39,550 bases of DNA from a virus: IMG/VR virus record IMGVR_UViG_3300045988_164840; one strand, given 5' to 3'. Below, piece by piece: positions 234 to 39,550 of the stretch (position 1 is its first letter; every line of letters starts with the position of its first letter). Under the pieces are notes generated by a model. That model did not search any database. It was not told the DNA's origin and saw only the letters and a list, made by a program, of their open reading frames with translations. The position numbers were made by a program, and so were the translations under genes.

Positions 234-1361
234 TCATTTAATGCCAAGAAGATTGCGTGTACTTTCGGTGTCTTCATGAGCATATCGTTTTCTCAACATT
301 TTTAAATCTGCATGTCCTAATACTGTTGCTACTGCAAATAAATTTGCACCGCTGTTTACCCATAATGTTGCACGTGTATGCCTTAATTCATGCGGATGCA
401 ATATTGGTACATCAACGCCCTGTTGCATATAATATGTATGCATATCTTTCATGAACACATCATAATGCCGTCTGCTCCATGTTCGTGGACTTTGTACAGT
501 TCCTTTTTCTGTGCAAAAGACAAATATACTGTTTCTATCTCTATTTTTCAAGATCTCAACAACATCTGAAGAAATTGGGATTTCTCTTTTCCTGAAATCA
601 TTTTTTGGCTTTCCAATAACAATTTTTGATTTTCTTGTATTTGCGTCGACTACATCTGTAACGCCACGTTCTATTTTTAATGTGGCATGTTCAAAATCAA
701 TGTCATCCCATTGAATTCCAAGCAGTTCCGAACGTGTAATCCCATATGACAATAGCAAAATAACATCAAGACCGTATCTATGTGTAGTTGCATATGCAAG
801 TACCATTTTGCACTGCTCTTCTGTGTAAGTTTGTTTTTTTCTTGTCTCTTTTTTGCTTGATAATTTGATGCTGGTGCATGGGTTCACATGGATCAAGCCA
901 TTTTGTAAAGCAGATTCAAAAATTCTTGATAGTGCCATTCTATGCTTTTTTAGCGTTTCTATCGTATATTCATTTGCTTTTTTATTAAAGTAGAGCTGGA
1001 TATCTATCTGCTTTATTTCTTGAATATGTGCTTTTTTGAAATATGGGATCAAGTGATTTTCAATAGAATTTCGATAGGTTAAATTGTAGGAACTATCTTT
1101 CACGGTTCCTTTTAAAGATTCCAAAACTTTTCTTGCCCATGTATCAAAACAGGTTCCGATACTTGTAATAGATTCACCTGTTATGTTTTTGACAGCTTGT
1201 TCAATTTTGTATTGTTCTGCTTTCGCTCTTGCATCTTCTTTGCTCCTTTTGCTGTAAAAGCTTTTGCGGATCAATGTGCCATCAAAATTCTTTCCAACGG
1301 TCACTTTCACTTCATAGCAACCGTCTTTTCTGTTCGGCTTTTCTTTTTTTGGTCTGCCCAT
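234..1361 (-). CDS. int: Tyrosine recombinase / phage integrase
   Basis: 375 aa. C-terminal catalytic pattern ..HPHELRHTRATL..LGHADLKMLRKRYAH (R, H-x-x-R, H, Y). GAGGGAG RBS before the ATG. Adjacent to attL. Confidence 0.95.
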   Translation of the reverse strand: MGRPKKEKPNRKDGCYEVKVTVGKNFDGTLIRKSFYSKRSKEDARAKAEQYKIEQAVKNITGESITSIGTCFDTWARKVLESLKGTVKDSSYNLTYRNSIENHLIPYFKKAHIQEIKQIDIQLYFNKKANEYTIETLKKHRMALSRIFESALQNGLIHVNPCTSIKLSSKKETRKKQTYTEEQCKMVLAYATTHRYGLDVILLLSYGITRSELLGIQWDDIDFEHATLKIERGVTDVVDANTRKSKIVIGKPKNDFRKREIPISSDVVEILKNRDRNSIFVFCTEKGTVQSPRTWSRRHYDVFMKDMHTYYMQQGVDVPILHPHELRHTRATLWVNSGANLFAVATVLGHADLKMLRKRYAHEDTESTRNLLGIK

Positions 1362-1578: not shown

Positions 1579-3225
1579 TTACTTGATTTTATAATAAGCA
1601 AATTTTCCCTTACCAACAAGTATAAGCATTCCGTCTTCTGTCATTTTGACAAGTAGTCGATATGCTTGCCCTTGGTTTAAATGTAGGAGTTGCATAACAT
1701 CTTTTCTTGTCACTTTTCCATAATTGTTTTTTGCAAATTTTAAAATAAGTTCTGGATAACGAATACGATTAATACCCGTCTGTCGTACATACCCAATAAC
1801 ATTATTTGCATTTTTATAAAGTTCTGCACTAAGAATATAGGATCTATTATTTCCGTTTCCATCTGTTTCCACAAGTCCCGATTCAACTAATTTTTCAATA
1901 GTAGTACGTACCTTGTATTCATTGATATGAATCATATGTGTAAGTGATTTAAGTTGTAGTCTTCTATTTGATTTTAAAGCATTTAATATCAGTAAAGCAT
2001 TTATAGATAATGGCCTTCCAATTTTACTTTGTTCTTCTGCAACCATTTTAATGAATGCCTTATCTGGTAAGCTTTTTGGAATAAACAGATTTACAGTGTT
2101 TGAATTGGATTCTGAATAATCAGGTAATGACTTTCCATAGGAAAGAGATCCTTCAAAAATACGATCAATCCCTCTTCCAGTACGTTCTGCAAGACCAATA
2201 CGTTTTAATGCATCAGCAAGTGCAGGATTTCTTCCGTGCGGTTCTGCTGTCAATAGATTTTCAATTGTTACGCCTTCAATAAATCCACCTGGATTACTTA
2301 TTGTTAAGCCATCATCATCCAGTGCAACGCGAATACGTCCCAATATTGTGTAGTCTCGATGGCAAAAGGCATTTACAAGTGCTTCACGAAACGCTCTTTT
2401 ATCAAAATCTGGAATAGAGATACGAAATAATCCTTCCTCCATTTCTTCTGTGTGATTTCTGGCATCCATATAAGATTCTATTTTTTCGAATGCTGTTAGC
2501 ATAGGTAACATAAACGATTCATTTACAACTACATCTGTGCCTTGTAATTCTTGAAATGTTGCTTCAGCAGTCGGAACAAGCATTGAGAGACGTTCTCTAC
2601 GACCAATCAATAACATACCACAATATGTAGGAACAAAAACACCATTTTGTTCTATTGCCAAACGAAGTGCAAGATCTAACTCTGTATCATCAAGATCAAG
2701 TAAAGTTTTTTCACCGTGATAATTTTGTATGATGCTACGAAGATGCTCTCGTTCTACTGGATCTAAATCTGAATATACAGCTTCTGGAACAGGTTGTGCG
2801 GAATAATCCAGCATACGCAATGAAGAAAGTCGTGAATTCATTTCATATGGGTACATAGGTATGTTTTCTGGTTCCCCATCCAACTTAATTCGTCTTCTCA
2901 AAACTTTTCCATTTGAAGCAGCAACAATAGCAGAATATTTTGGAACTGTTATAATCAAATATTTTATGTTATTTGTATCAATAAGTTCAGTATGAACAGC
3001 AACAGGTGGAATTGTTTTATTTGCAATAAATGCTGCCAATTTTGAAGGGTCTTTGTGAGATGGATGTAATCCTGTAATGTCACCATTATCTTCTACGCCA
3101 AGGAAAAATCTGCCACCATTAGTATTTGCAAAAGCAACTACACTTTCAATTATCACGTCATCTGATAATTTTTTTAAATCGCTTTTAAATTCAATGGTTA
3201 TATTTTCTCGGAATCCAATGTTCAT
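1579..3225 (-). CDS. Schlafen/AlbA_2-domain protein with an HATPase_c_4-like segment and C-terminal winged-helix regions (COG2865-type putative regulator)
   Basis: ENITIEFKSDL..VVAFANTNGGRFFLGVEDNG (AlbA_2-like). FREALVNAFCHRDY..ISNPGG..GRNP..AERTGRGI (HATPase_c_4-like). Start trimmed to ATG 3225, which has AAAGGAG 8 nt upstream. Confidence 0.85.
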   Translation of the reverse strand: MNIGFRENITIEFKSDLKKLSDDVIIESVVAFANTNGGRFFLGVEDNGDITGLHPSHKDPSKLAAFIANKTIPPVAVHTELIDTNNIKYLIITVPKYSAIVAASNGKVLRRRIKLDGEPENIPMYPYEMNSRLSSLRMLDYSAQPVPEAVYSDLDPVEREHLRSIIQNYHGEKTLLDLDDTELDLALRLAIEQNGVFVPTYCGMLLIGRRERLSMLVPTAEATFQELQGTDVVVNESFMLPMLTAFEKIESYMDARNHTEEMEEGLFRISIPDFDKRAFREALVNAFCHRDYTILGRIRVALDDDGLTISNPGGFIEGVTIENLLTAEPHGRNPALADALKRIGLAERTGRGIDRIFEGSLSYGKSLPDYSESNSNTVNLFIPKSLPDKAFIKMVAEEQSKIGRPLSINALLILNALKSNRRLQLKSLTHMIHINEYKVRTTIEKLVESGLVETDGNGNNRSYILSAELYKNANNVIGYVRQTGINRIRYPELILKFAKNNYGKVTRKDVMQLLHLNQGQAYRLLVKMTEDGMLILVGKGKFAYYKIK

Positions 3226-3240
3226 TTCAACACTCCTTTT

Positions 3241-3412
3241 ACGCTCGGTGAGCGTTAATACATATTTATTATAGCACAAACGAGCGTTAAAAGCAAGCGT
3301 TAAAATAAAAAAATTGTTTTTCAATGAAAAAAAGTGCGAATTTTCGGAACATTTATAAGTGTCTGGTTTAACGCTCGTTAACACTCGATACGAGCGTTAA
3401 ACCGAGCGTTAA
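3241..3412. promoter_or_regulatory. Array of GAGCGTTAA iterons (putative operators)
   Basis: GAGCGTTAA at 3250, 3282, 3392 and 3404. AAGCGTTAA at 3295. Inverted TTAACGCTC at 3368. Palindrome ACGCTC-GGT-GAGCGT at 3241-3255. Confidence 0.7.
3268..3296 (-). promoter_or_regulatory. Promoter of the AlbA_2-type gene (TTGCTT-17-TATAAT, TGn extended)
   Basis: -10 at 3268-3273 and -35 at 3291-3296 (minus strand). One iteron fills the spacer, one overlaps the -35, and a palindrome sits in the 5' UTR. Confidence 0.6.
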
Positions 3413-3450
3413 ACTGATTTTTTGTAGTTTTAGTGACATATAACACATGC

Positions 3451-3500
3451 AAAAAATCCCACCGGAGCAGGTGCATCAACCGCTTCGATGGGGTTTTTTT
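3451..3500 (-). terminator. Terminator element, copy A (A-run, hairpin, T-run)
   Basis: AAAAAATCCCACCGGAGC-AGGTGCATCAACC-GCTTCGATGGGGTTTTTTT, located 11 nt after the stop of the 3511-4272 gene. About 90% identical to 6415-6462. Confidence 0.8.
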
Positions 3501-3510
3501 ATTTAATACC

Positions 3511-4272
3511 TTATACAAATACATTTTGATTTTCACCAATAGAACTAAATAAAATTGGTTTAATAGCATAGCTTTCAAATGCAACAATATCTTTTTCATT
3601 TATTTTGTTTTCATCGTTTATAATTGTTATTAAAGTACTGCTATCTTCTCTAGCATCCATCGTATCAAGCCAATTAAAGATTGTAGCATCTCTAATTGAT
3701 TTGTTTAAATGATTGATAACTCTACAAAAACGGTCTGTTGGATTGGCTTTATTTCGTTGAAAATGAAAATCGTATGTGTATATATTTTTCGTTTTTCCAA
3801 TTATTGAAAAATCTCTGGTATAATATATTTCATGTTTATCGAAAAATGTAGTAACATCTTCCAAAAACAAACTTTTTACATTGCTTTTTCGTAGTTCAAA
3901 CATATTATCAATCAGCAACATTGCTTGAACCATCATATGCTTTTTTTTCGGAAAATCTTTAATTTTAGAAACGGCTGTAATCGCTTCTCCATCCAGTGTA
4001 AGTCCATAATTATGAATTGTTCTTTCTAAAATTCGCTGTTTTGTAGAATTTTTCTTGAATTGCATGCCACATGCGATAAGATTTCCAATAATATAACCGT
4101 CATCTGTGAAAAATACATCATTTTCATCAACTTGCTTTACATAAATCTGGAGATAATCGTTAAAGCGGTCTAAATATGGAGTTGTTATTTCATAGTATTC
4201 ACCGATTTTTTCAAAAGAGATACTTTTGTTAAGCCAATCGGTATAGGAATCTATCATTTTCTTAATATCCAT
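3511..4272 (-). CDS. DUF1828/DUF1829-like protein (function unknown)
   Basis: 253 aa. N-terminal YYEITTPYLDRFNDYLQIYV..FFTDDGYIIGNL matches my memory of DUF1828 followed by DUF1829. AGGAG RBS present. Lies 24 nt downstream of the preceding gene. Confidence 0.8.
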   Translation of the reverse strand: MDIKKMIDSYTDWLNKSISFEKIGEYYEITTPYLDRFNDYLQIYVKQVDENDVFFTDDGYIIGNLIACGMQFKKNSTKQRILERTIHNYGLTLDGEAITAVSKIKDFPKKKHMMVQAMLLIDNMFELRKSNVKSLFLEDVTTFFDKHEIYYTRDFSIIGKTKNIYTYDFHFQRNKANPTDRFCRVINHLNKSIRDATIFNWLDTMDAREDSSTLITIINDENKINEKDIVAFESYAIKPILFSSIGENQNVFV

Positions 4273-4296
4273 GCTATCAACTCCTTTTTCTGCTTT

Positions 4297-4746
4297 TTAA
4301 AATCCTTTAAGTGATGTTACTTGGGCAATCGTTGGAGGATCTACAATGTGAAATCGTTCAAAAAAGTCCATACAAAGCTCAAGTAAATTTTTGTTGGAAA
4401 CATCAAACGGAATTGCTTCTGTACCATATTCAGCAGAATAGATATGTAGATGTGCCCCTTTTATGTGCGTATCTGTCTTTTCATCATAATGAACTAGGTT
4501 TTTTCCAACATCTAAGCGAAGTAGTACAATTCCTTCTGGCAACCGACCTAAATAAGTACAATTATCAGCATTAATGCCTTTTCTTTGAACATTAACAACA
4601 AAAGACTGATCATCATCAGAAACAACTTCAAATTCAAATCTACCTTTTCCGTTTGGGATATAATACGTTTGGTTTATTACTTTTCTTTTCAATAAGTTTA
4701 TTAGCTCTATTGCTTCTTCCGTGCTTAAAGCAGATTTCTTTGTCAT
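4297..4746 (-). CDS. Hypothetical 149-aa protein with an HxH motif (GAHLHIYSAEYG), possibly DUF6978-like
   Basis: ATG with AAAGGGA RBS, directly downstream of a strong promoter. First gene of a two-gene cassette. The family assignment is tentative. Confidence 0.75.
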   Translation of the reverse strand: MTKKSALSTEEAIELINLLKRKVINQTYYIPNGKGRFEFEVVSDDDQSFVVNVQRKGINADNCTYLGRLPEGIVLLRLDVGKNLVHYDEKTDTHIKGAHLHIYSAEYGTEAIPFDVSNKNLLELCMDFFERFHIVDPPTIAQVTSLKGF

Positions 4747-7452: not shown

Positions 7453-7487
7453 AATAATACCCCCATTTTTGTGTAAAAAGATGAAAA

Positions 7488-7533
7488 TAACACCATAGTG
7501 TAATTTTTGGTTGACAATCACACTATGGTGTGA
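7488..7533. promoter_or_regulatory. Two operator-like inverted repeats (ACAC-N6-GTGT core)
   Basis: TAACACCATAGTGTAA at 7488-7503 and TCACACTATGGTGTGA at 7518-7533. The second fills the spacer of the rightward promoter. Confidence 0.7.
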
Positions 7534-7539: not shown

Positions 7540-7802
7540 AAAACCACGGTCGAGATAAAGCACGCTATACCAAATAAAAAAAAGAACGTTTCCGGTTGAT
7601 TTTCATGAGCAAACGGGAAATAAAGCGATTTTCAAGCGTGCTTTACTTTATTGTATCATGTTCCATTTTATTTGTCAATAGAAAGCATATTATTTGCAGA
7701 AATTCTTTGACGATGGAAAATGAAATGTTTAACAAAATCAGTCGAGGACAGGTAGCGGAAAACCCAAACGCTCGACTGAAATTAAAAGAAGGTGGTGAAA
7801 TA

Positions 7803-8762: not shown

Positions 8763-9540
8763 AATTCAGGTATGGAACTATGAGAGTTCCGAAGTTCGGA
8801 CAGTACAGGTGAACGGCGAACCGTGGTTCGTGCTGTCTGATGTGTGCAAAGTGCTGGAATTGTCAACGCCAGCCAGAGTTGCAGAAAGGCTGGAAAAAGA
8901 TGAGGTGAGTCAGACTCACACCATCGACAGAATGGGGAGAGAGCAAAAAACAACCATCATCAATGAATCCGGTTTATACACCGTGATTCTCCGGAGCGAC
9001 AAACCGCAGGCAAAACCATTTCGGAAATGGGTGACATCAGAAGTGCTTCCATCCATCCGCAAACATGGCAGCTATTCCGTGCAGTCGCAGTTTGCGGATC
9101 TGTCCCCACAGCTGCAAGTCTTAATCCAAATGGAAACCCGTCAGAAACAGATAGAAGCCCGTCAGGCAGAGCAGGCAACTGCACTCGCAGGACTGGAACA
9201 GAAGTTGCAGAATACCTGCGAGGTCATCGCTCTGGACAAGACCGCATGGAGAAAAGACAGCGAACACCTGATTAACAAGATTGCACGGGCAACCGGAGAG
9301 GGTTATGGCGGTATTCGGTTAGTTTACGAGGAAATCTATCGTTCCATCGAATCCAGAGCAGACGTTTCCTTGAATACCCGTCTGACCAACAAGCGGAATC
9401 GGATGGCTGGCGAGGGCGTTTGCAAATCGAAACGGGACAAGCTGACACGGGTTGACATCATCGCAGAGGACAAGAAGCTGATTGAAATCTATGTGGCAAT
9501 CGTCAAGGAACTGGCTGTGAAATACGGCGTTTGTGCGTGA
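8755..9540 (+). CDS. Bro-N / antirepressor (Ant-like)
   Basis: WFVLSDVCKVLEL..ESGLYTVILRSDKPQAKPFRKWVTSEVLPSIRKHG is a typical Bro-N domain. It also has a C-terminal Ant-type region. Confidence 0.88.
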   Translation: MNEIQVWNYESSEVRTVQVNGEPWFVLSDVCKVLELSTPARVAERLEKDEVSQTHTIDRMGREQKTTIINESGLYTVILRSDKPQAKPFRKWVTSEVLPSIRKHGSYSVQSQFADLSPQLQVLIQMETRQKQIEARQAEQATALAGLEQKLQNTCEVIALDKTAWRKDSEHLINKIARATGEGYGGIRLVYEEIYRSIESRADVSLNTRLTNKRNRMAGEGVCKSKRDKLTRVDIIAEDKKLIEIYVAIVKELAVKYGVCA

Positions 9541-9561
9541 GAGGGAGAGGAGAAATGAAAG

Positions 9562-9822
9562 ATGGCACGAAAACCAGATCCGAAACCACGGGAATTACCG
9601 ATGGACATCGTAGCCGGAAACATTGCCGGACTGATGCAGCGGCGGAGAATCACACCGCTGGAAATCTGTAAGCTGCTGGGATATGCACAGACAAGAACAT
9701 GGAACACACGCATGAGCGACCCGTCCTCGTTTACGGGGGCGGATCTGAATATGATATGTTCATTTTTCGGCGTGACGTTGGAGCAGCTTGCACATGACAG
9801 TATGGAAACGGCGGTGAGATGA
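9562..9822 (+). CDS. Small HTH-like protein
   Basis: 86 aa with RBS GAGGAG. Contains ITPLEICKLLGYAQTRTWNTRM.. The ATGA stop/start overlaps the next gene. Confidence 0.7.
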   Translation: MARKPDPKPRELPMDIVAGNIAGLMQRRRITPLEICKLLGYAQTRTWNTRMSDPSSFTGADLNMICSFFGVTLEQLAHDSMETAVR

Positions 9823-10280
9823 TGGGAAAACGGTACTACTGGCTGAAACTTCCAGAAGACTTTTTCGGAGATAAAGCCATTAAACGGCTGCGAAAGATTG
9901 CTGGCGGTGATACATACGTTATCATTTATCTGAAAATGATGCTCCGCAGCCTGAAAGATGATGGGTATTTGTACTATGACGGCTTGGAGGAAGACTTTCC
10001 GGCAGAACTTGCCCTTGATTTGGACGAGGAAGAGGACAATGTACAAGTAACGCTGAACTTCTTACTGCAACACGGAAAGCTGGAGATCCGCAGCGAGCAG
10101 GAATACTTCATGCCGGATATGAACATTGGTTCTGAAACGGCAGCAGCAGAACGAAAACGTGCAGAACGGGAGAGAAAACGACAGCAATCGTTACAGAGTA
10201 ATGAGCCTGAAACGTCAGGGTGTGACAATGTCACAGGGGTGTCACAAATGTGTCACGGAGAGATAGATATAGATAGATAG
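9819..10280 (+). CDS. Phage replisome organizer, N-terminal domain, ending at an in-frame TAG
   Basis: YYWLKLPEDFFGDKAIKRLRKIAGGDTYVIIYLKMML is Phage_rep_org_N-like. The stop TAG at 10278-10280 lies inside a GATA repeat. Confidence 0.85.
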   Translation: MMGKRYYWLKLPEDFFGDKAIKRLRKIAGGDTYVIIYLKMMLRSLKDDGYLYYDGLEEDFPAELALDLDEEEDNVQVTLNFLLQHGKLEIRSEQEYFMPDMNIGSETAAAERKRAERERKRQQSLQSNEPETSGCDNVTGVSQMCHGEIDIDR

Positions 10281-10308
10281 ATAGAGAAAGATATCTATCT
10301 ATCTATCT
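10261..10308. repeat. (GATA)n / (TATC)n palindrome, candidate replication-origin element
   Basis: AGATAGATAGATAG (10271-10284) and CTATCTATCTATCT (10295-10308) form a perfect 14-bp inverted repeat with a 10-nt spacer. Extra GATA units lie at 10262-10269. Confidence 0.85.
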
Positions 10309-10631
10309 TAGATGGCGAATCAAAAGAAAATCTTTCAACTTTTCAACAATCAGCACAACCACCAACGCTATTAGAGGTCAAACAGTATGCAGAGCAGAAA
10401 GGCATCCATACAGATGTGCAAAAGTTTTACAGCTATTACAGCGAACGTGGATGGAAAACCAAGAACGGTCAGCCGATTACAAACTGGAAAGGCACACTGG
10501 CTTATTGGGGCAAGACAGACGGAACTTGTCAGGGCAAGCGAAAGCCGGAAACCTATGTTTCAGAGAATGCAGCAGCCTATGAGAGTCTAATCTATAACCT
10601 ACAGGAGAATGACAGCAGTGATAAGGCATAA
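10281..10631 (+). other. Continuation of the replisome-organizer frame after the TAG (C-terminal domain, no usable own start)
   Basis: Same frame as 9819-10280. Encodes ..PPTLLEVKQYAEQKGIHTDVQKFYSYYSERGWKTKNGQPITNWKGTLAYW, a typical C-terminal module of phage organizer/DnaD-like proteins. The only in-frame start is GTG 10416, which lies inside that motif. Confidence 0.65.
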
Positions 10632-10774
10632 AAAAGAGCCCTGTTGCTGAGAGGGTGCAACAGGGCATCAAAAGGAGAAATAAAATTGGATTAAACAAAC
10701 CATGCCGAAAGGGATCGACAAGAATATCATACTCCTTTTCGGGTTCGGTGTCAAGCAAAAAGGAGGAAAAGTTT

Positions 10775-11290
10775 GTGGAAGGAGAAGACATTTTTGCAGT
10801 GGTCTGTGTGCTGGGAATGTTCGGAGCGGCTGCATATCATATTGCAATGCAAATCAAGAACGGCTTGCAAGAGCGGCACAGAGAACCGCCGAAGCCAACA
10901 CCGGCGGAGCAGAGCGAAGAAATCTATGGATTTAACTTTTACGATGTGTCCCACGGAATTGACAGCACGGTAACGATTCGGGAGCATCTCGAGACGCTCC
11001 AGCGGCTGCAAACCAAGATTGATTTGAGCCGGGAGAATCTGTGTGGAAATTATCGGGTGGTACAGATCCAGTGGCACGATGATGTGCAGAACAGGTATCT
11101 GACCTATGATTTTCCTGTATCGTACGGAGAGAATGCAGCTCTTTTAGAGCAGTTAGTCTGTGCGGAAAAGCAGCGGTTGACCACTTCCCTGTTCAGCGAG
11201 ATTCAGAAAATGAGCCAATACGGTGAAGTCAAAACCGTGGACAAAACCGAGAGGGGAGCAGGGGAGAGGGGAGAAAAAAAGCGTGAGTGA
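10775..11290 (+). CDS. Hypothetical protein with an N-terminal TM helix
   Basis: GTG 10775 lies 8 nt after AAGGAGG. The N-terminal segment is IFAVVCVLGMFGAAAYHIAM. Confidence 0.6.
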   Translation: MEGEDIFAVVCVLGMFGAAAYHIAMQIKNGLQERHREPPKPTPAEQSEEIYGFNFYDVSHGIDSTVTIREHLETLQRLQTKIDLSRENLCGNYRVVQIQWHDDVQNRYLTYDFPVSYGENAALLEQLVCAEKQRLTTSLFSEIQKMSQYGEVKTVDKTERGAGERGEKKRE

Positions 11291-19615: not shown

Positions 19616-19927
19616 ATGAATCGAAGAGAAGAATTGCTGAAAATCGTGAATGAATCGAACAGCATTGCAATTTTGCCCTTGATTGACCGCATGATTTTTC
19701 TGGAAACAAAGCTGGAAGAACTAGAAAAGCTGCCGATGATTCGGATCAATGCAGAAAATCCGTCTCAGCAGAAAGCAACACCGGCAGCAAAACAGTATCG
19801 GGAATTTCTGCAACAGTACACGAATGTTGTGAAAATTGTCGCCCGTATTTCCGATGACAACGGAGATCAGCAGGAAAGTCCATTGCGAGCGTGGGCAAGA
19901 GAAAGAGGGATGGACTGTGCATGTTAA
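19616..19927 (+). CDS. Second small-terminase-like / packaging accessory protein (P27-type by position)
   Basis: 103 aa, immediately upstream of TerL and overlapping it (ATGTTAA), downstream of the HNH gene. This is the classic HNH-TerS-TerL order. The family call is tentative. Confidence 0.5.
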   Translation: MNRREELLKIVNESNSIAILPLIDRMIFLETKLEELEKLPMIRINAENPSQQKATPAAKQYREFLQQYTNVVKIVARISDDNGDQQESPLRAWARERGMDCAC

Positions 19928-21627
19928 TCAAGGAAAAGAAAATCTGGACACCGGATAATTCTTTTTTGCTGGAATACCATGCACGGATTGCATGTGGTGA
20001 AATCCTTGTCGGACAGGAATTGTGGCAGGAGTTAGAAAACTTAAAAGCCGATTTTCTGAACGATGCCTTTTATTATGATACCAAAGATGCACGAATCCGG
20101 ATCAATTTCATGGAAAAGTGCGTCCGGCTGACAAAATCGCCGTATTATAATCAGCCGATGGTGCTGATGCTCTGGCAAAAGGCTTTTATCGAAGCAATCT
20201 ACAGCTTCAAGATGAGTGAAACCACATTTGACCGGTTCAAAAAAATCATTTTGCTGATTGCCAGAAAGAATACAAAGTCGGAAACTTGTTCTGCTTTGGG
20301 TTTGTCTGAATTGATTGTTGGCAATAATGGTGCAGATATTGTATGCAGTTCCAACGATGACAATCAAGCAAGCATTACTTACGATGCAATTGACACCATG
20401 CGGCGGTTGATTGATCCGGACGATTTGGACACAAAGCGAAATCAGCGATTTATCCTCAATAAAGTGAATGGGTCGAAGATTTTTAAGCTGTCCGACCGGA
20501 CAAAAAACAAAGAAGGGCGTAATATTGATTTCGCAATCATAGACGAAACCCACGAAATGAAAGAAAACATCATCGGGAAATCTATTGAACAGTCGCAGAG
20601 CTTGAAAGAAAACCCGAAATTTATCAATATCACGACCGAAGGCTTTGTGGTCGGCGGCTATTTAGACGATGAACTGAAAAAAGCACGGGCTGTAATCAGT
20701 GGAGAAGATGACACGCTTGCAGGGCAGCGACTTTTGCCGTGGCTTTATACACAGGATTCTGAAAACGAAGTGTGGCAGGATGAACGCACTTGGGTAAAAA
20801 GCAATCCAACGCTGGGAATCGTGAAAAAATGGGATTACCTGCGAGAACAGGTAGATCTTGCACGGTCATCCAAAGCGGATCGTATTTTTGTATTGCCAAA
20901 AGATTTTAATATCAAGCAAAATGCAGTAGAATCGTGGCTAAATCTGGAAGACTATGATTATGGTGCAGTTTATGATTTGGAAGAATTTCGTGGCTGCATT
21001 TGTTTGGGTGCAGTGGACTTGTCAGAAACAACCGACCTGACTTGTGCAAAGATTTTGATGATGAAGCCGGACGACAAAACCAAATACATTCACACCATGT
21101 ATTTTATTCCACAGTCAAAGTTAGAAGATTCAGATGACTGGATTGCTGGTGCAAGGTATAAAGATTGGGCAAAATCCGGACTGCTTACAATTACAGACGG
21201 AACAGACATTGATTTGTCTGTGGTTGCAGATTGGTTTTACAAGCTGTACACGGATTATGACATCCGTCTGTGGCGGTGCGGATATGATCAGCGATTTAGC
21301 CGTGACTGGATGAATCGTATGGATTATTATGGCTGGACGAAACAAAATGAAGATTTGGTGCTGATTTTGCAGAACGCTTACACATTATCCAATGCACTGA
21401 AATATTGTGAAGCAGACCTGAAACATCAGCTGATTAACTATAATAACAATGAGATTGATAAATGGTGCTTGAAAAACGCTGGTATTAAAACCGTTGATAA
21501 TTTTGCTCTATGTGTGAAAACAGAACGTGCGAAGCGAATTGACGGGGCTGTTACGATGATTATTTTGTATGAGATGTACAGAAGATACCGCACAGACTTT
21601 ACACAGCTGATTCGGCAATCCAGATAG
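19921..21627 (+). CDS. terL: Terminase large subunit
   Basis: Contains ARKNTKSE (Walker A-like), DFAIIDETHE (Walker B) and a C-terminal nuclease region. GTG 19891 is an alternative start. Ends in TAG. Confidence 0.92.
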   Translation: MLIKEKKIWTPDNSFLLEYHARIACGEILVGQELWQELENLKADFLNDAFYYDTKDARIRINFMEKCVRLTKSPYYNQPMVLMLWQKAFIEAIYSFKMSETTFDRFKKIILLIARKNTKSETCSALGLSELIVGNNGADIVCSSNDDNQASITYDAIDTMRRLIDPDDLDTKRNQRFILNKVNGSKIFKLSDRTKNKEGRNIDFAIIDETHEMKENIIGKSIEQSQSLKENPKFINITTEGFVVGGYLDDELKKARAVISGEDDTLAGQRLLPWLYTQDSENEVWQDERTWVKSNPTLGIVKKWDYLREQVDLARSSKADRIFVLPKDFNIKQNAVESWLNLEDYDYGAVYDLEEFRGCICLGAVDLSETTDLTCAKILMMKPDDKTKYIHTMYFIPQSKLEDSDDWIAGARYKDWAKSGLLTITDGTDIDLSVVADWFYKLYTDYDIRLWRCGYDQRFSRDWMNRMDYYGWTKQNEDLVLILQNAYTLSNALKYCEADLKHQLINYNNNEIDKWCLKNAGIKTVDNFALCVKTERAKRIDGAVTMIILYEMYRRYRTDFTQLIRQSR

Positions 21628-23094: not shown

Positions 23095-24006
23095 TTGCAG
23101 ATGGATCTGTTGCTATATGCGATTTTAAACAAAAAAATCAAGCAAAGTGGTAGCGGTGGCGGTTCGGCTGTTTCTGTCCAAAATTGCACGATTAACAATG
23201 ACGGAGATCTAATTGTTACATTGTCGGATGGGTCAATCATCAATGCCGGACGTGCAAAGGGCGACAAGGGAGATACCGGGGAAACGGGAGCAGCCGGAGC
23301 GGCTGGGACACCGGGTGTGAATGGTGCAGACGGTGTACCCGGAAAAGATGGCGAACCGGGAACAGATGGTATTTCTCCAACGATTGAAATCTATGAAAAC
23401 ACACCGACCGTATATCGGCTGAAAGTCAATAATGCGGATGGTTCATCTATCATTACGCCAAATTTGATTGGCACAGGGTCAACCACGACCCGTTATTATG
23501 TGTTTGATAACGCAATGTATACAAACTATACAGGTACGATTTACACGCTGACAACAACGGGGCTGAAATCTTTGCAGGAATATATCACAGCGGAAAGTGC
23601 ATTTTGCAATGCAGATTCCAATCATTCCTTGTATTATAATAATACGGATTTCGGATGGAATCAGCAAGTGACGACTTTTAGCACCACGCCACTGACCATC
23701 AGCCCGACACAGTTGCTGTTATATGGGTACATTTCAAGCTCGATGAAAGACGGGGAATTTTTCAAGTTCATTCCTGCTGGTCTGGTTACCGGTGCGACAG
23801 ATGCAGAAAAGGCGACATCAATTCAAAGCCTGCTGGCAGCGGACAACGAAAACATTGTCAAAGTCGATTTTGAGTATGTGTATGCAACAGCTGGCGTAAC
23901 AGAAGCCGTTGATATTTCGAGTGTTCCGGCAGGTGAATATTATTTGGCATGGTCGGGAACAAGCGACAACAGTTCTCCAAAAATCAATGATATTACAATT
24001 ATGTAA
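23095..24006 (+). CDS. Collagen-like repeat protein
   Basis: 12 uninterrupted G-X-Y triplets, GDKGDTGETGAAGAAGTPGVNGADGVPGKDGEPGTDG (nt 23260-23370), followed by a roughly 210-aa C-terminal domain. Confidence 0.85.
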   Translation: MQMDLLLYAILNKKIKQSGSGGGSAVSVQNCTINNDGDLIVTLSDGSIINAGRAKGDKGDTGETGAAGAAGTPGVNGADGVPGKDGEPGTDGISPTIEIYENTPTVYRLKVNNADGSSIITPNLIGTGSTTTRYYVFDNAMYTNYTGTIYTLTTTGLKSLQEYITAESAFCNADSNHSLYYNNTDFGWNQQVTTFSTTPLTISPTQLLLYGYISSSMKDGEFFKFIPAGLVTGATDAEKATSIQSLLAADNENIVKVDFEYVYATAGVTEAVDISSVPAGEYYLAWSGTSDNSSPKINDITIM

Positions 24007-38194: not shown

Positions 38195-39232
38195 TTAAAA
38201 GTCAACGATTTTTTTTAAAAATTGAAAACTTGAAAGTATTATATCATTTTTTCCGAAAAAAGATAAATATTTATGTTCAAATCGCCCAAGAATTTTTCTT
38301 ATTGCTTTCAGATCGTGCTGCAAAATATCTTTTGGCAGAAATGTAGAATCTCCAAATCGCTTGTTGGCAAGATACAATACACTTGCAAATTCATGCAATG
38401 TTCGGCACCTCAATCTTGATTGAATCATTGATTTTGTGCATCCTTTTCTCGAAACGAATGTTCTGACAACCGAAAGTGGATAACATTCATTTCCTGATAA
38501 ATCATGCAAGATACAATTGTTATGTGCACAAGCATTGCGGATACTTTTTATGCTATGTAGCAGTTGAGATGAAAGTGGGCTATCTTCTTCATGATATTTA
38601 TAATAAAAATCATAAAAACGAATTAACCCACCGAATGTGATAGATTCCAGCAGAACCCATATGGGCATATCAATGCAGTACTGCTTTTCTCTACCATTTT
38701 GTTTATATAGATGACAATATACATCATTGTTGTTATCTGAACAGTCACACTCAGAAATATACTTTTTTAGCAAATCGCTTATATAACCATTTCGCTGAAT
38801 TCCCTTCTGTAAAATATCATTTGCTGTATAAGAATCGCTCTTTAAAAATGCAGTAACGATTGCATATGCATCTTCTGGTTTTCTTGTTTCAAAGTCTTTC
38901 AAAAGAGATAATTTTAGGCAATGTTCTATATCGACACAAATCCCAAAAATCTGTTTTCTAAGCTGCAAATCTAAAATTGCAAGTGCTTTCAAATGAAAAA
39001 AATCAAGATTTACGTATTTACCTTTCTTTTCACCCAATTGTGCTTTTTGAAAATTTTTTCTATATGAATACAGCCGCAAAAAATTATTCTTCTCTATTAG
39101 ATATTTTGCGGCATCGTTTTTTTGTATTATTTGAAATGTGATTCCCTTGCTTTCCATTTTATCAACAAGTTCTGTTGCGGAACAGTAAGGTTTTTTCTCT
39201 AACATCGGAGAATGATATAATAATGTTTCCAA
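38195..39232 (-). CDS. Abi_2 family abortive-infection protein (AbiD/AbiF-like)
   Basis: Contains LVDKMESKGITF..AAKYLIEKNNFLRLYSYRKNF..LKALAILDLQLRKQIF..IRNACAHNNCILHD. The start is uncertain (TTG 39232 or ATG 39205). Confidence 0.85.
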   Translation of the reverse strand: METLLYHSPMLEKKPYCSATELVDKMESKGITFQIIQKNDAAKYLIEKNNFLRLYSYRKNFQKAQLGEKKGKYVNLDFFHLKALAILDLQLRKQIFGICVDIEHCLKLSLLKDFETRKPEDAYAIVTAFLKSDSYTANDILQKGIQRNGYISDLLKKYISECDCSDNNNDVYCHLYKQNGREKQYCIDMPIWVLLESITFGGLIRFYDFYYKYHEEDSPLSSQLLHSIKSIRNACAHNNCILHDLSGNECYPLSVVRTFVSRKGCTKSMIQSRLRCRTLHEFASVLYLANKRFGDSTFLPKDILQHDLKAIRKILGRFEHKYLSFFGKNDIILSSFQFLKKIVDF

Positions 39233-39453: not shown

Positions 39454-39550
39454 AACAAAAACCCACGCAATTCCGAAAAAGCCTCGAAACTGCGTGGGTT
39501 TTCTCTGGTCTGAGTGACCGGACTTGAACCGGCGGCCTCTACCACCCCAA
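39454..39550. repeat. attR copy of the 97-bp direct repeat
   Basis: Identical to 1-97. Confidence 0.95.
39506..39550 (-). tRNA. 3' part of tRNA-Pro (probable anticodon GGG). The gene continues beyond the window.
   Basis: CCA end at 39506. T-arm GCCGG-TTCAAGT-CCGGT. Acceptor 3' strand CACTCAG implies C1:G72, and A73 is present, both typical of tRNA-Pro. Loop UUGGGGU with G37. The 5' half is outside the window. Confidence 0.6.

Follow-up and report, generated by a model that had tools for sequence, protein, structure and literature searches.

The initiator gene of phage lambda, O, contains iterons; the N-terminal part of the protein binds the origin and the C-terminal part recruits a helicase-loading partner. 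In the PF09681/TIGR01714 family, which includes the lactococcal Tuc2009-type Rep, an N-terminal domain is followed by a low-complexity stretch of E, I, D and K, which mirrors DNA repeats capable of serving as an origin. In SPP1, oriL lies inside gene 38 and is composed of protein-bound direct repeats and an adjacent AT-rich unwinding element (PMC6316719). Here we describe a replisome-organizer gene of the PF09681/TIGR01714 family at positions 9819–10631 of a viral DNA stretch of 39,550 nucleotides (nt), IMG/VR record IMGVR_UViG_3300045988_164840 (the window). The gene is interrupted by an in-frame TAG, which comparison with relatives identifies as a very recent G>T nonsense mutation at position 10278. 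The lesion sits in an origin-like palindrome, and it is likely a recent, probably templated knockout of the organizer that leaves the prophage impaired in replication.

Two kinds of mutable DNA described in other systems are relevant to this locus. Templated mutation at quasi-palindromes is an established mechanism, known from E. coli and yeast, by which template switching perfects an imperfect repeat through a change at the mismatch (PMC7202029, PMC3820800). In the mod genes of Haemophilus and Neisseria, which are contingency loci, changes in the number of units of an in-frame tetranucleotide tract switch the frame on or off (PMC1557822, PMC5084427).

The open reading frame (ORF) that begins at ATG 9819 closes at TAG 10278–10280 after 153 codons. 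Past the stop, the frame stays open for 116 more codons, up to TAA 10629–10631, and contains a single canonical in-frame start, GTG 10416. An earlier sequence-only reading of this DNA had recognized the organizer, its in-frame split by the TAG, the 116-codon open frame and the GTG, and the ORF map, the translation and the PF09681 match confirm all four. The gene is made up of the following parts (lengths in amino acids, aa).

9819–10280, plus strand: truncated replisome-organizer ORF, 153 aa, made up of the N-terminal winged-helix-like domain plus the linker's first half.
10278–10280, plus strand: premature TAG; base 10278 is T here and G in relatives (GAG, Glu).
10281–10631, plus strand: 3′ remainder of the organizer gene, orphaned, still in frame, with no usable start at its 5′ end; its translation aligns to approximately residues 156–271 of the intact orthologues P0001 and P0176.
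10362–10508, plus strand: conserved C-terminal module (PTLLEV...FYSYYSERGWKTKNGQPITNWKGTLAYW), defined by the alignment of 49 homologues and by PHROG 15768.
10416–10631, plus strand: 71-aa ORF from GTG 10416, lacking the first helix of the C-terminal module.

The organizer belongs to a known kind of gene. The N-terminal domain in the 153-aa ORF scores 70.6 bits against PF09681 (cut-off 23.3; E-value 1.5e-19), and the same ORF matches PHROG 5968, annotated as 'replisome organizer', at 1.7e-45. The intact orthologue P0001 scores 99.4 bits against TIGR01714 (cut-off 49.8). The N-terminal domain is well above both curated cut-offs and, as in the rest of the family, is followed by a low-complexity E/I/D/K stretch. 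The window copy differs from the family in being truncated by a stop, and the repeats of its clade are inverted rather than purely direct. It is a disrupted member of the family, that is, a pseudogene, and not a member of another family.

No Pfam or NCBIfam model is matched by the 116 codons past the stop, whose translation aligns residue by residue to the C-terminal part in full-length homologues. The C-terminal module within them matches PHROG 15768, of unknown function, at 5e-9. Across 49 homologues, of which the most distant have 43% identity, its residues P183, F204, Y207, W213, W224 and W231 do not vary. All 49 share a constant layout of N-terminal domain, low-complexity E/I/D/K linker and C-terminal module. 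The linker of the window, EIDIDR.IEKDIYLSI (the dot marks the stop), is the translation of the GATA/TATC repeats, and a homologous EIEIEKE stretch is present in 49 of 49 aligned homologues.

An AlphaFold (AF2) model of the intact orthologue is consistent with this layout. The N-terminal domain spans residues ~8–103 (pLDDT 74–87) and the C-terminal module forms three helices at residues 180–235 (pLDDT 71–80). Residues 128–177 between them, the linker, are of low confidence, and the stop maps there. Foldseek against the PDB returned only weak winged-helix matches for the N-terminal domain (E ≥ 0.016), which presumably binds origin DNA. The C-terminal module found no match by Foldseek against the PDB, by PDB sequence search, or in Pfam or NCBIfam.

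More than 25 orthologues with 75–99% identity are each one continuous protein of 257–271 aa with Glu at the stop position, and among the best 80 IMG/VR relatives 77 loci are complete, each of which is one ORF of 239–349 aa. Glu is nearly invariant at the stop column of the homologue alignments. At the nucleotide level, 37 relatives with shared flanking sequence carry GAG instead of TAG, 22 of which turned up when viral and metagenome contigs were scanned for the pattern without selection. The window protein with Glu restored also exists, as P0176 on 113 contigs (indexed in 194 collection blocks) and as P0177 on 14 contigs. Over 10.8 kb, the intact locus L140 and the window are the same apart from the G/T at 10278 and a T-run indel near 7706. 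Because the relatives are continuous with GAG and L140 is near-identical, the stop is recent, and neither conserved nor programmed. An inactivating mutation, one of the explanations offered by the sequence-only reading, is accordingly favored by the continuous GAG orthologues and by an intact twin one base apart at this site. Taken alone, the stop represents a commonplace and very recent inactivation of a replication gene in a prophage; the sequence-only reading was right about the lesion and in part took its interpretation too far.

The TAG allele is probably real. JGI contig L040 (342,362 nt) and ENA MEGAHIT k119 contig L041 (342,105 nt) are identical to the window over 20,280 nt, and both carry the TAG. 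The TAG is present as well in ENA SPAdes contig L138 (114,307 nt), which has 14x coverage, is reported in two samples and matches the window without a difference over 10,459 nt. Since the same TAG appears in three assemblies made by at least two assemblers, an assembler error is unlikely. Four short-read Logan contigs from different samples (L042–L044 and L139) end inside the palindrome, 0–3 bases from 10278, which suggests either a branch of the assembly graph caused by mixed alleles or a drop in coverage. Their proteins, P0121 (L042–L044) and P0178 (L139), were considered as further TAG alleles and rejected: the contigs merely end in the palindrome, and two of them show G at 10278.

The inverted repeat whose left arm contains the TAG is perfect and follows a cluster of short repeats. 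The elements concerned are listed below.

10221–10257, no strand assigned: iteron-like cluster TGTGACA/TGTCACA/TGTCACA/TGTCACG, putative organizer binding sites.
10258–10308, no strand assigned: AT-rich GATA/TATC repeat palindrome, a mutation hotspot and putative origin segment for unwinding or cruciform formation.
10292–10308, plus strand: (TATC)4 tract in the right palindrome arm, detected by TRF; near-identical prophages have frame-shifting tracts of n = 3, 5 or 6.

The arms of the inverted repeat (10271–10285 and 10294–10308) are 15 nt long and 100% complementary, and are separated by an 8-nt loop (10286–10293). The sequence-only reading had described a perfect repeat of 14 bp; the repeat is real and its length needs correction. 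Six copies of GATAGATAGATA, allowing up to one mismatch, are found at the palindrome and none elsewhere in the window, against an expectation of 0.1, which speaks against a chance repeat. Folded as single-stranded DNA, the palindrome region reaches −12.1 kcal/mol (z = −3.6), and none of 200 shuffles is as low. The palindrome also coincides with a GC minimum of 31% (10250–10349), as compared with 45–52% in the flanks. Immediately upstream, four of the ten TGTCACR sites of the 39.5-kb window fall within 37 nt (10221–10257) at spacings of 8, 11 and 11 nt, and include three direct TGTCAC copies 11 nt apart. When positions 9562–10700 were used as a blastn query, the match to Butyrivibrio phage Arian was confined to the iteron/palindrome element, and in Arian the same order, TGTGACA/TGTCAC then GATA, occurs inside the annotated replisome-organizer gene.

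The clustering of the iterons, the GC minimum and the restriction of the Arian DNA match to this element lead us to infer that the iterons and the AT-rich palindrome in the linker DNA are probably the phage origin. An origin inside the gene had been proposed by the sequence-only reading; the iterons at 10221–10257, which lie by the local GC minimum, and the precedent of SPP1 oriL add to its plausibility. The likeness to SPP1 G38P/oriL consists in an origin inside the initiator gene, represented here by four TGTCAC repeats followed by a 31%-GC tract. Unlike in SPP1, the AT-rich part is a GATA/TATC palindrome translated within the linker, and no G39P/G40P-type helicase or helicase loader was seen in the replication module; the likeness is drawn from the layout. 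Lambda O is similar in layout and has no sequence relationship to the organizer.

A sister lineage (L055, P0014–P0020) offers a separate observation on the putative binding sites. Its N-terminal domain is identical and its palindrome is kept, and three GAAAC repeats replace the four TGTCAC sites. The linker module is thus a different one, and the putative sites have been exchanged while the N-terminal domain stayed the same, which is odd if this domain alone reads them.

The position of the mutation within the palindrome suggests how it arose. The ancestral left arm, AGATAGAGAGATAGA, and the reverse complement of the right arm, AGATAGATAGATAGA, differ by one mismatch, at 10278. The G>T change at this base results in a 15/15 arm match and also lengthens the GATA tandem run, and the hairpin energy goes from −10.2 kcal/mol for the ancestral sequence to −12.1 kcal/mol for the TAG sequence. 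The gene allows 2430 single substitutions; 147 of them introduce a stop, and among these only G>T at 10278 also gives a 15-bp perfect repeat. Because the changed base was the sole mismatch between the palindrome arms, the substitution points to a repeat-templated error rather than a random hit. It may have been produced by a strand or template switch within the quasi-palindrome, or by misalignment within the GATA repeat. The change resembles the E. coli and yeast template-switch mutations in that an imperfect repeat is perfected at its mismatch, and differs from them in being a single natural metagenome variant that lies in a tandem GATA repeat.

The same palindrome is altered in other ways in close relatives of the window. 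The number of TATC units in its right arm varies among prophages on a near-clonal background, defined by no more than three other differences from the window per ~7–10 kb. The alleles are as follows.

n = 3 (L147): truncation to 162 aa.
n = 4 with GAG (L140): intact.
n = 4 with TAG (window and L138): truncation to 153 aa.
n = 5 (L051, near-clonal): 254-aa frameshifted product; L009–L011 also have n = 5.
n = 6 (L144 and L145, near-clonal): truncation to 165 aa; L146 also has n = 6.

The loci in which the tract was compared include L009–L017, L051 and L144–L147. Among n = 3, 4, 5 and 6, the organizer is in frame with n = 4 only. A 50-bp element thus exists in five alleles on a near-identical background of ~10 kb, and four of them cut off the C-terminal module. 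Since four tract lengths occur on a near-clonal background and a single one is in frame, the palindrome is a hotspot at which the C-terminal module is cut off, a recurrent breakage point of the organizer in this prophage lineage. The sequence-only reading had suggested a length-variable tetranucleotide tract as a cause of the stop. That part does not hold, as the N- and C-terminal parts of the window gene are in the same frame; the variability itself does, with n ranging from 3 to 6 in near-identical relatives. The n = 5 allele is found on at least three backgrounds (P0123, P0131 and P0171), as is the n = 3 allele (P0128, P0035 and P0041/P0163), and both extend to prophages more diverged from the window. 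Indexed blocks number 436 for P0123 (n = 5) and 194 for the matching intact P0176.

A separate lesion is carried by P0150 (L045–L050), which has lost 4 nt in the left arm and has a TAG at the same codon; it is a decayed remnant beside an insertion sequence. Like the alleles above that break the frame, it parts the N-terminal domain from the C-terminal module. In the 327-kb contig L045 (1176–1300), the prophage extends only ~100 nt downstream of the palindrome and then meets an IS30-like transposase gene and host alpha-amylase genes.

In the window, the frame into which n = 5 shifts translation (10277–10580, +2 relative to the gene) has no stop for 101 codons, for which synonymous resampling gives P = 0.0036. 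Dual coding was considered for this frame and rejected: diverged orthologues contain 3–16 stops in it, with L108 (0 stops) as the sole exception, and the close relatives L052 and L054 contain one each. The openness of the frame is probably due to chance. In the n = 5 allele of L051, the tract ends ...TAT CTT AGA TGG (~4490–4500, corresponding to 10305–10315 of the window). It is pure speculation that a +1 ribosomal slip on the CUU-A of this allele restores the frame of the C-terminal module; the site resembles the Ty1 CUU-AGG site.

Several other explanations of the stop and of the allele series were weighed against a recent knockout. If the T at 10278 were a sequencing or assembly artefact, the real gene would be intact. 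In favor of this, position 10278 belongs to an AT-rich repeat able to form a hairpin, a polymerase that switched templates while the library was being amplified would give exactly G>T there, and the three assemblies may not be independent. The same base is nevertheless present in all three, one of them at 14x and reported in two samples, and the 15-nt arms are far below the assembly k-mers (k119, and k141 in related assemblies), so that collapse of the graph is not expected. We regard an artefact as very unlikely. Somewhat less credence still is given to a TAG that is read through or suppressed, by a suppressor tRNA, reassignment or a leaky context, to yield a useful full-length organizer. TAG-recoding phages are known from gut metagenomes, and the 116 downstream codons are intact, which would be expected anyway for a very recent mutation. 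Against readthrough, the relatives have Glu and not a stop at this codon, no tRNA gene was found in the window, and no relevant Rfam element was found. In addition, TAG terminates 7 of 48 selected ORFs of at least 80 aa, including that of the large terminase (19891–21627), with the portal gene starting 11 nt after the terminase TAG, and no other long gene is interrupted. TAG reassignment or a suppressor encoded in the window was ruled out on the basis of TAG usage as a terminator and the lack of a window tRNA, and the programmed readthrough entertained by the sequence-only reading is disfavored for the same reasons and by a stop that is not conserved. The least probable reading, to which we attach hardly any weight, is that the organizer works as two polypeptides, an N-terminal fragment and a C-terminal fragment whose translation restarts at GTG 10416 or some non-canonical codon. 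The 71-aa ORF retains F204, Y207, W213, W224 and W231. It is also called as a gene on some contigs, which is uninformative on function. However, the invariant P183 and the module's first helix lie outside it. A promoter scan of 9400–11000 found no promoter-like site in 10281–10416, and no convincing ribosome-binding site was seen upstream when the sequence was read by eye. The sequence-only reading had allowed that orthologues might routinely be two separate genes; they are continuous, and none of more than 100 relatives examined shows a two-gene arrangement. The 71-aa ORF is thus probably not a functional product.

The allele series raises a different possibility, that the palindrome is a phase-variation (contingency) locus in which slippage of (TATC)n switches the organizer ON (n = 4) or OFF (n = 3, 5 or 6), the TAG being an OFF state reached without slippage. 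Like contingency loci, the tract shows unit-number frame shifts among near-identical genomes, with four tract lengths and a TAG allele on a near-clonal background. The recurrence of n = 5 and n = 3 on several backgrounds, the abundance of OFF alleles such as P0123 and the Logan contigs that end exactly in the palindrome are also in favor of switching. Unlike the known contingency loci, the tract has only 3–6 units, short for classical high-rate tetranucleotide switching, and sits in a prophage replication gene at a presumed origin; its variation is seen here between prophages. Moreover, the TAG allele is not revertible by slippage, and in the unselected scan 22 of 22 loci have a normal-length in-frame tract with GAG (21 with n = 4, and L021 with a one-base interruption). 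A slippery tract, together with relaxed selection on a gene not expressed in lysogens, would yield the same pattern with no adaptive switch. We consider phase variation unlikely.

Some points weigh against the interpretation of the lesion as a recent, templated knockout at a mutation hotspot. The TAG allele is known from assembled contigs, and the three TAG assemblies may come from related samples or even from one sample. The templated origin is deduced from one event, after the fact, and the GATA tandem context provides a second possible template that is indistinguishable from the hairpin. As for the hotspot, the unselected scan yielded only undisrupted tracts, the disrupted alleles may be concentrated in particular host lineages or cohorts, and the contig and block counts of the alleles represent non-independent samples. 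Finally, some replication could be left through low-level UAG readthrough, a host suppressor tRNA or host initiation functions.

A recent knockout of the organizer would act as follows. The normal organizer is best described as one protein of ~270 aa, with a DNA-binding N-terminal domain, a disordered low-complexity linker and a three-helix C-terminal module. The TAG is expected to halt translation after residue 153, so that the presumed DNA-binding part is kept and the C-terminal module is lost. From the layout of lambda O, the N-terminal fragment is predicted to bind the origin without starting replication; by analogy with lambda O and SPP1 G38P, it would fail to recruit the replication machinery. 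We infer that the prophage would be unable, or barely able, to begin its own replication after induction. The TAG lesion would be silent and cost-free during lysogeny.

We identify the window as a temperate prophage integrated in the genome of a human-gut Firmicute. The sole host name on offer is 'Ruminococcus sp.', from an NCBI metagenome-assembled genome, and no close relative was found among GTDB representative genomes. The ends of the prophage are marked by the following features.

1–97, no strand assigned: attL copy of a 97-nt direct repeat, with a tRNA gene 3′ end inside on the minus strand.
234–1361, minus strand: tyrosine integrase, from Pfam Phage_integrase and related matches on the identical gene in L040.
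39454–39550, no strand assigned: attR copy of the direct repeat, from the identity of the first and last 97 nt.

The terminal 97 nt of the window are identical at both ends and form a direct repeat. The repeat contains the tRNA T-arm GGTTCAAGTCCGG on the minus strand. The two copies are assigned as attL and attR because they contain a tRNA 3′ end, an integrase gene lies at 234–1361, and host flanks are present in the 342-kb contigs. A circular phage genome, with the 97-nt terminal repeat as an overlap, was considered and ruled out by the 342-kb bacterial contigs and the tRNA 3′ end. The terminase, portal, capsid-region ORFs, minor tail protein, endolysin and SSB appear intact. The long ORFs of the window are intact under the standard bacterial code, and no broken gene besides the organizer was noticed in it.

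Other features of the prophage were observed. Accessory genes near both ends are possible defence cargo. Those at the left end (1579–4746, minus strand) encode a 601-aa SLFN_AlbA_2/HATPase_c_4 protein, a DUF1828/DUF1829 protein and a DUF6978 protein, and the one at the right end (38195–39232, minus strand) encodes an abortive-infection-like protein (PHROG 2158). A gene at 23095–24006 encodes a 303-aa protein with collagen-like and tail-fibre-type PHROG matches; its location, between the portal gene and the head-protein ORFs, is unusual. Between divergent repressor-type genes, an operator-like perfect inverted repeat, CACCATAGTGT...ACACTATGGTG, flanks a TTGACA hexamer (7480–7530). Most of the few other differences among the near-identical prophages are one-base changes in the length of T or A runs (7504, 7576 and 7706).

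For annotation, the organizer of the window should be recorded as a pseudogene and not as a case of recoding. The locus provides a natural and concrete case of prophages becoming 'grounded'. It also illustrates how a presumed origin, repetitive and palindromic by need, would make a fragile gene when it lies inside the coding sequence of its own initiator. A built-in hypermutable origin switch, in which TATC gain or loss and palindrome-templated changes toggle the C-terminal module within a lysogen population, seems rather doubtful. If true, a widespread gut prophage would alternate between a replication-competent and a grounded state, and reversible switching of the tract would represent a new control of gut prophage activity.

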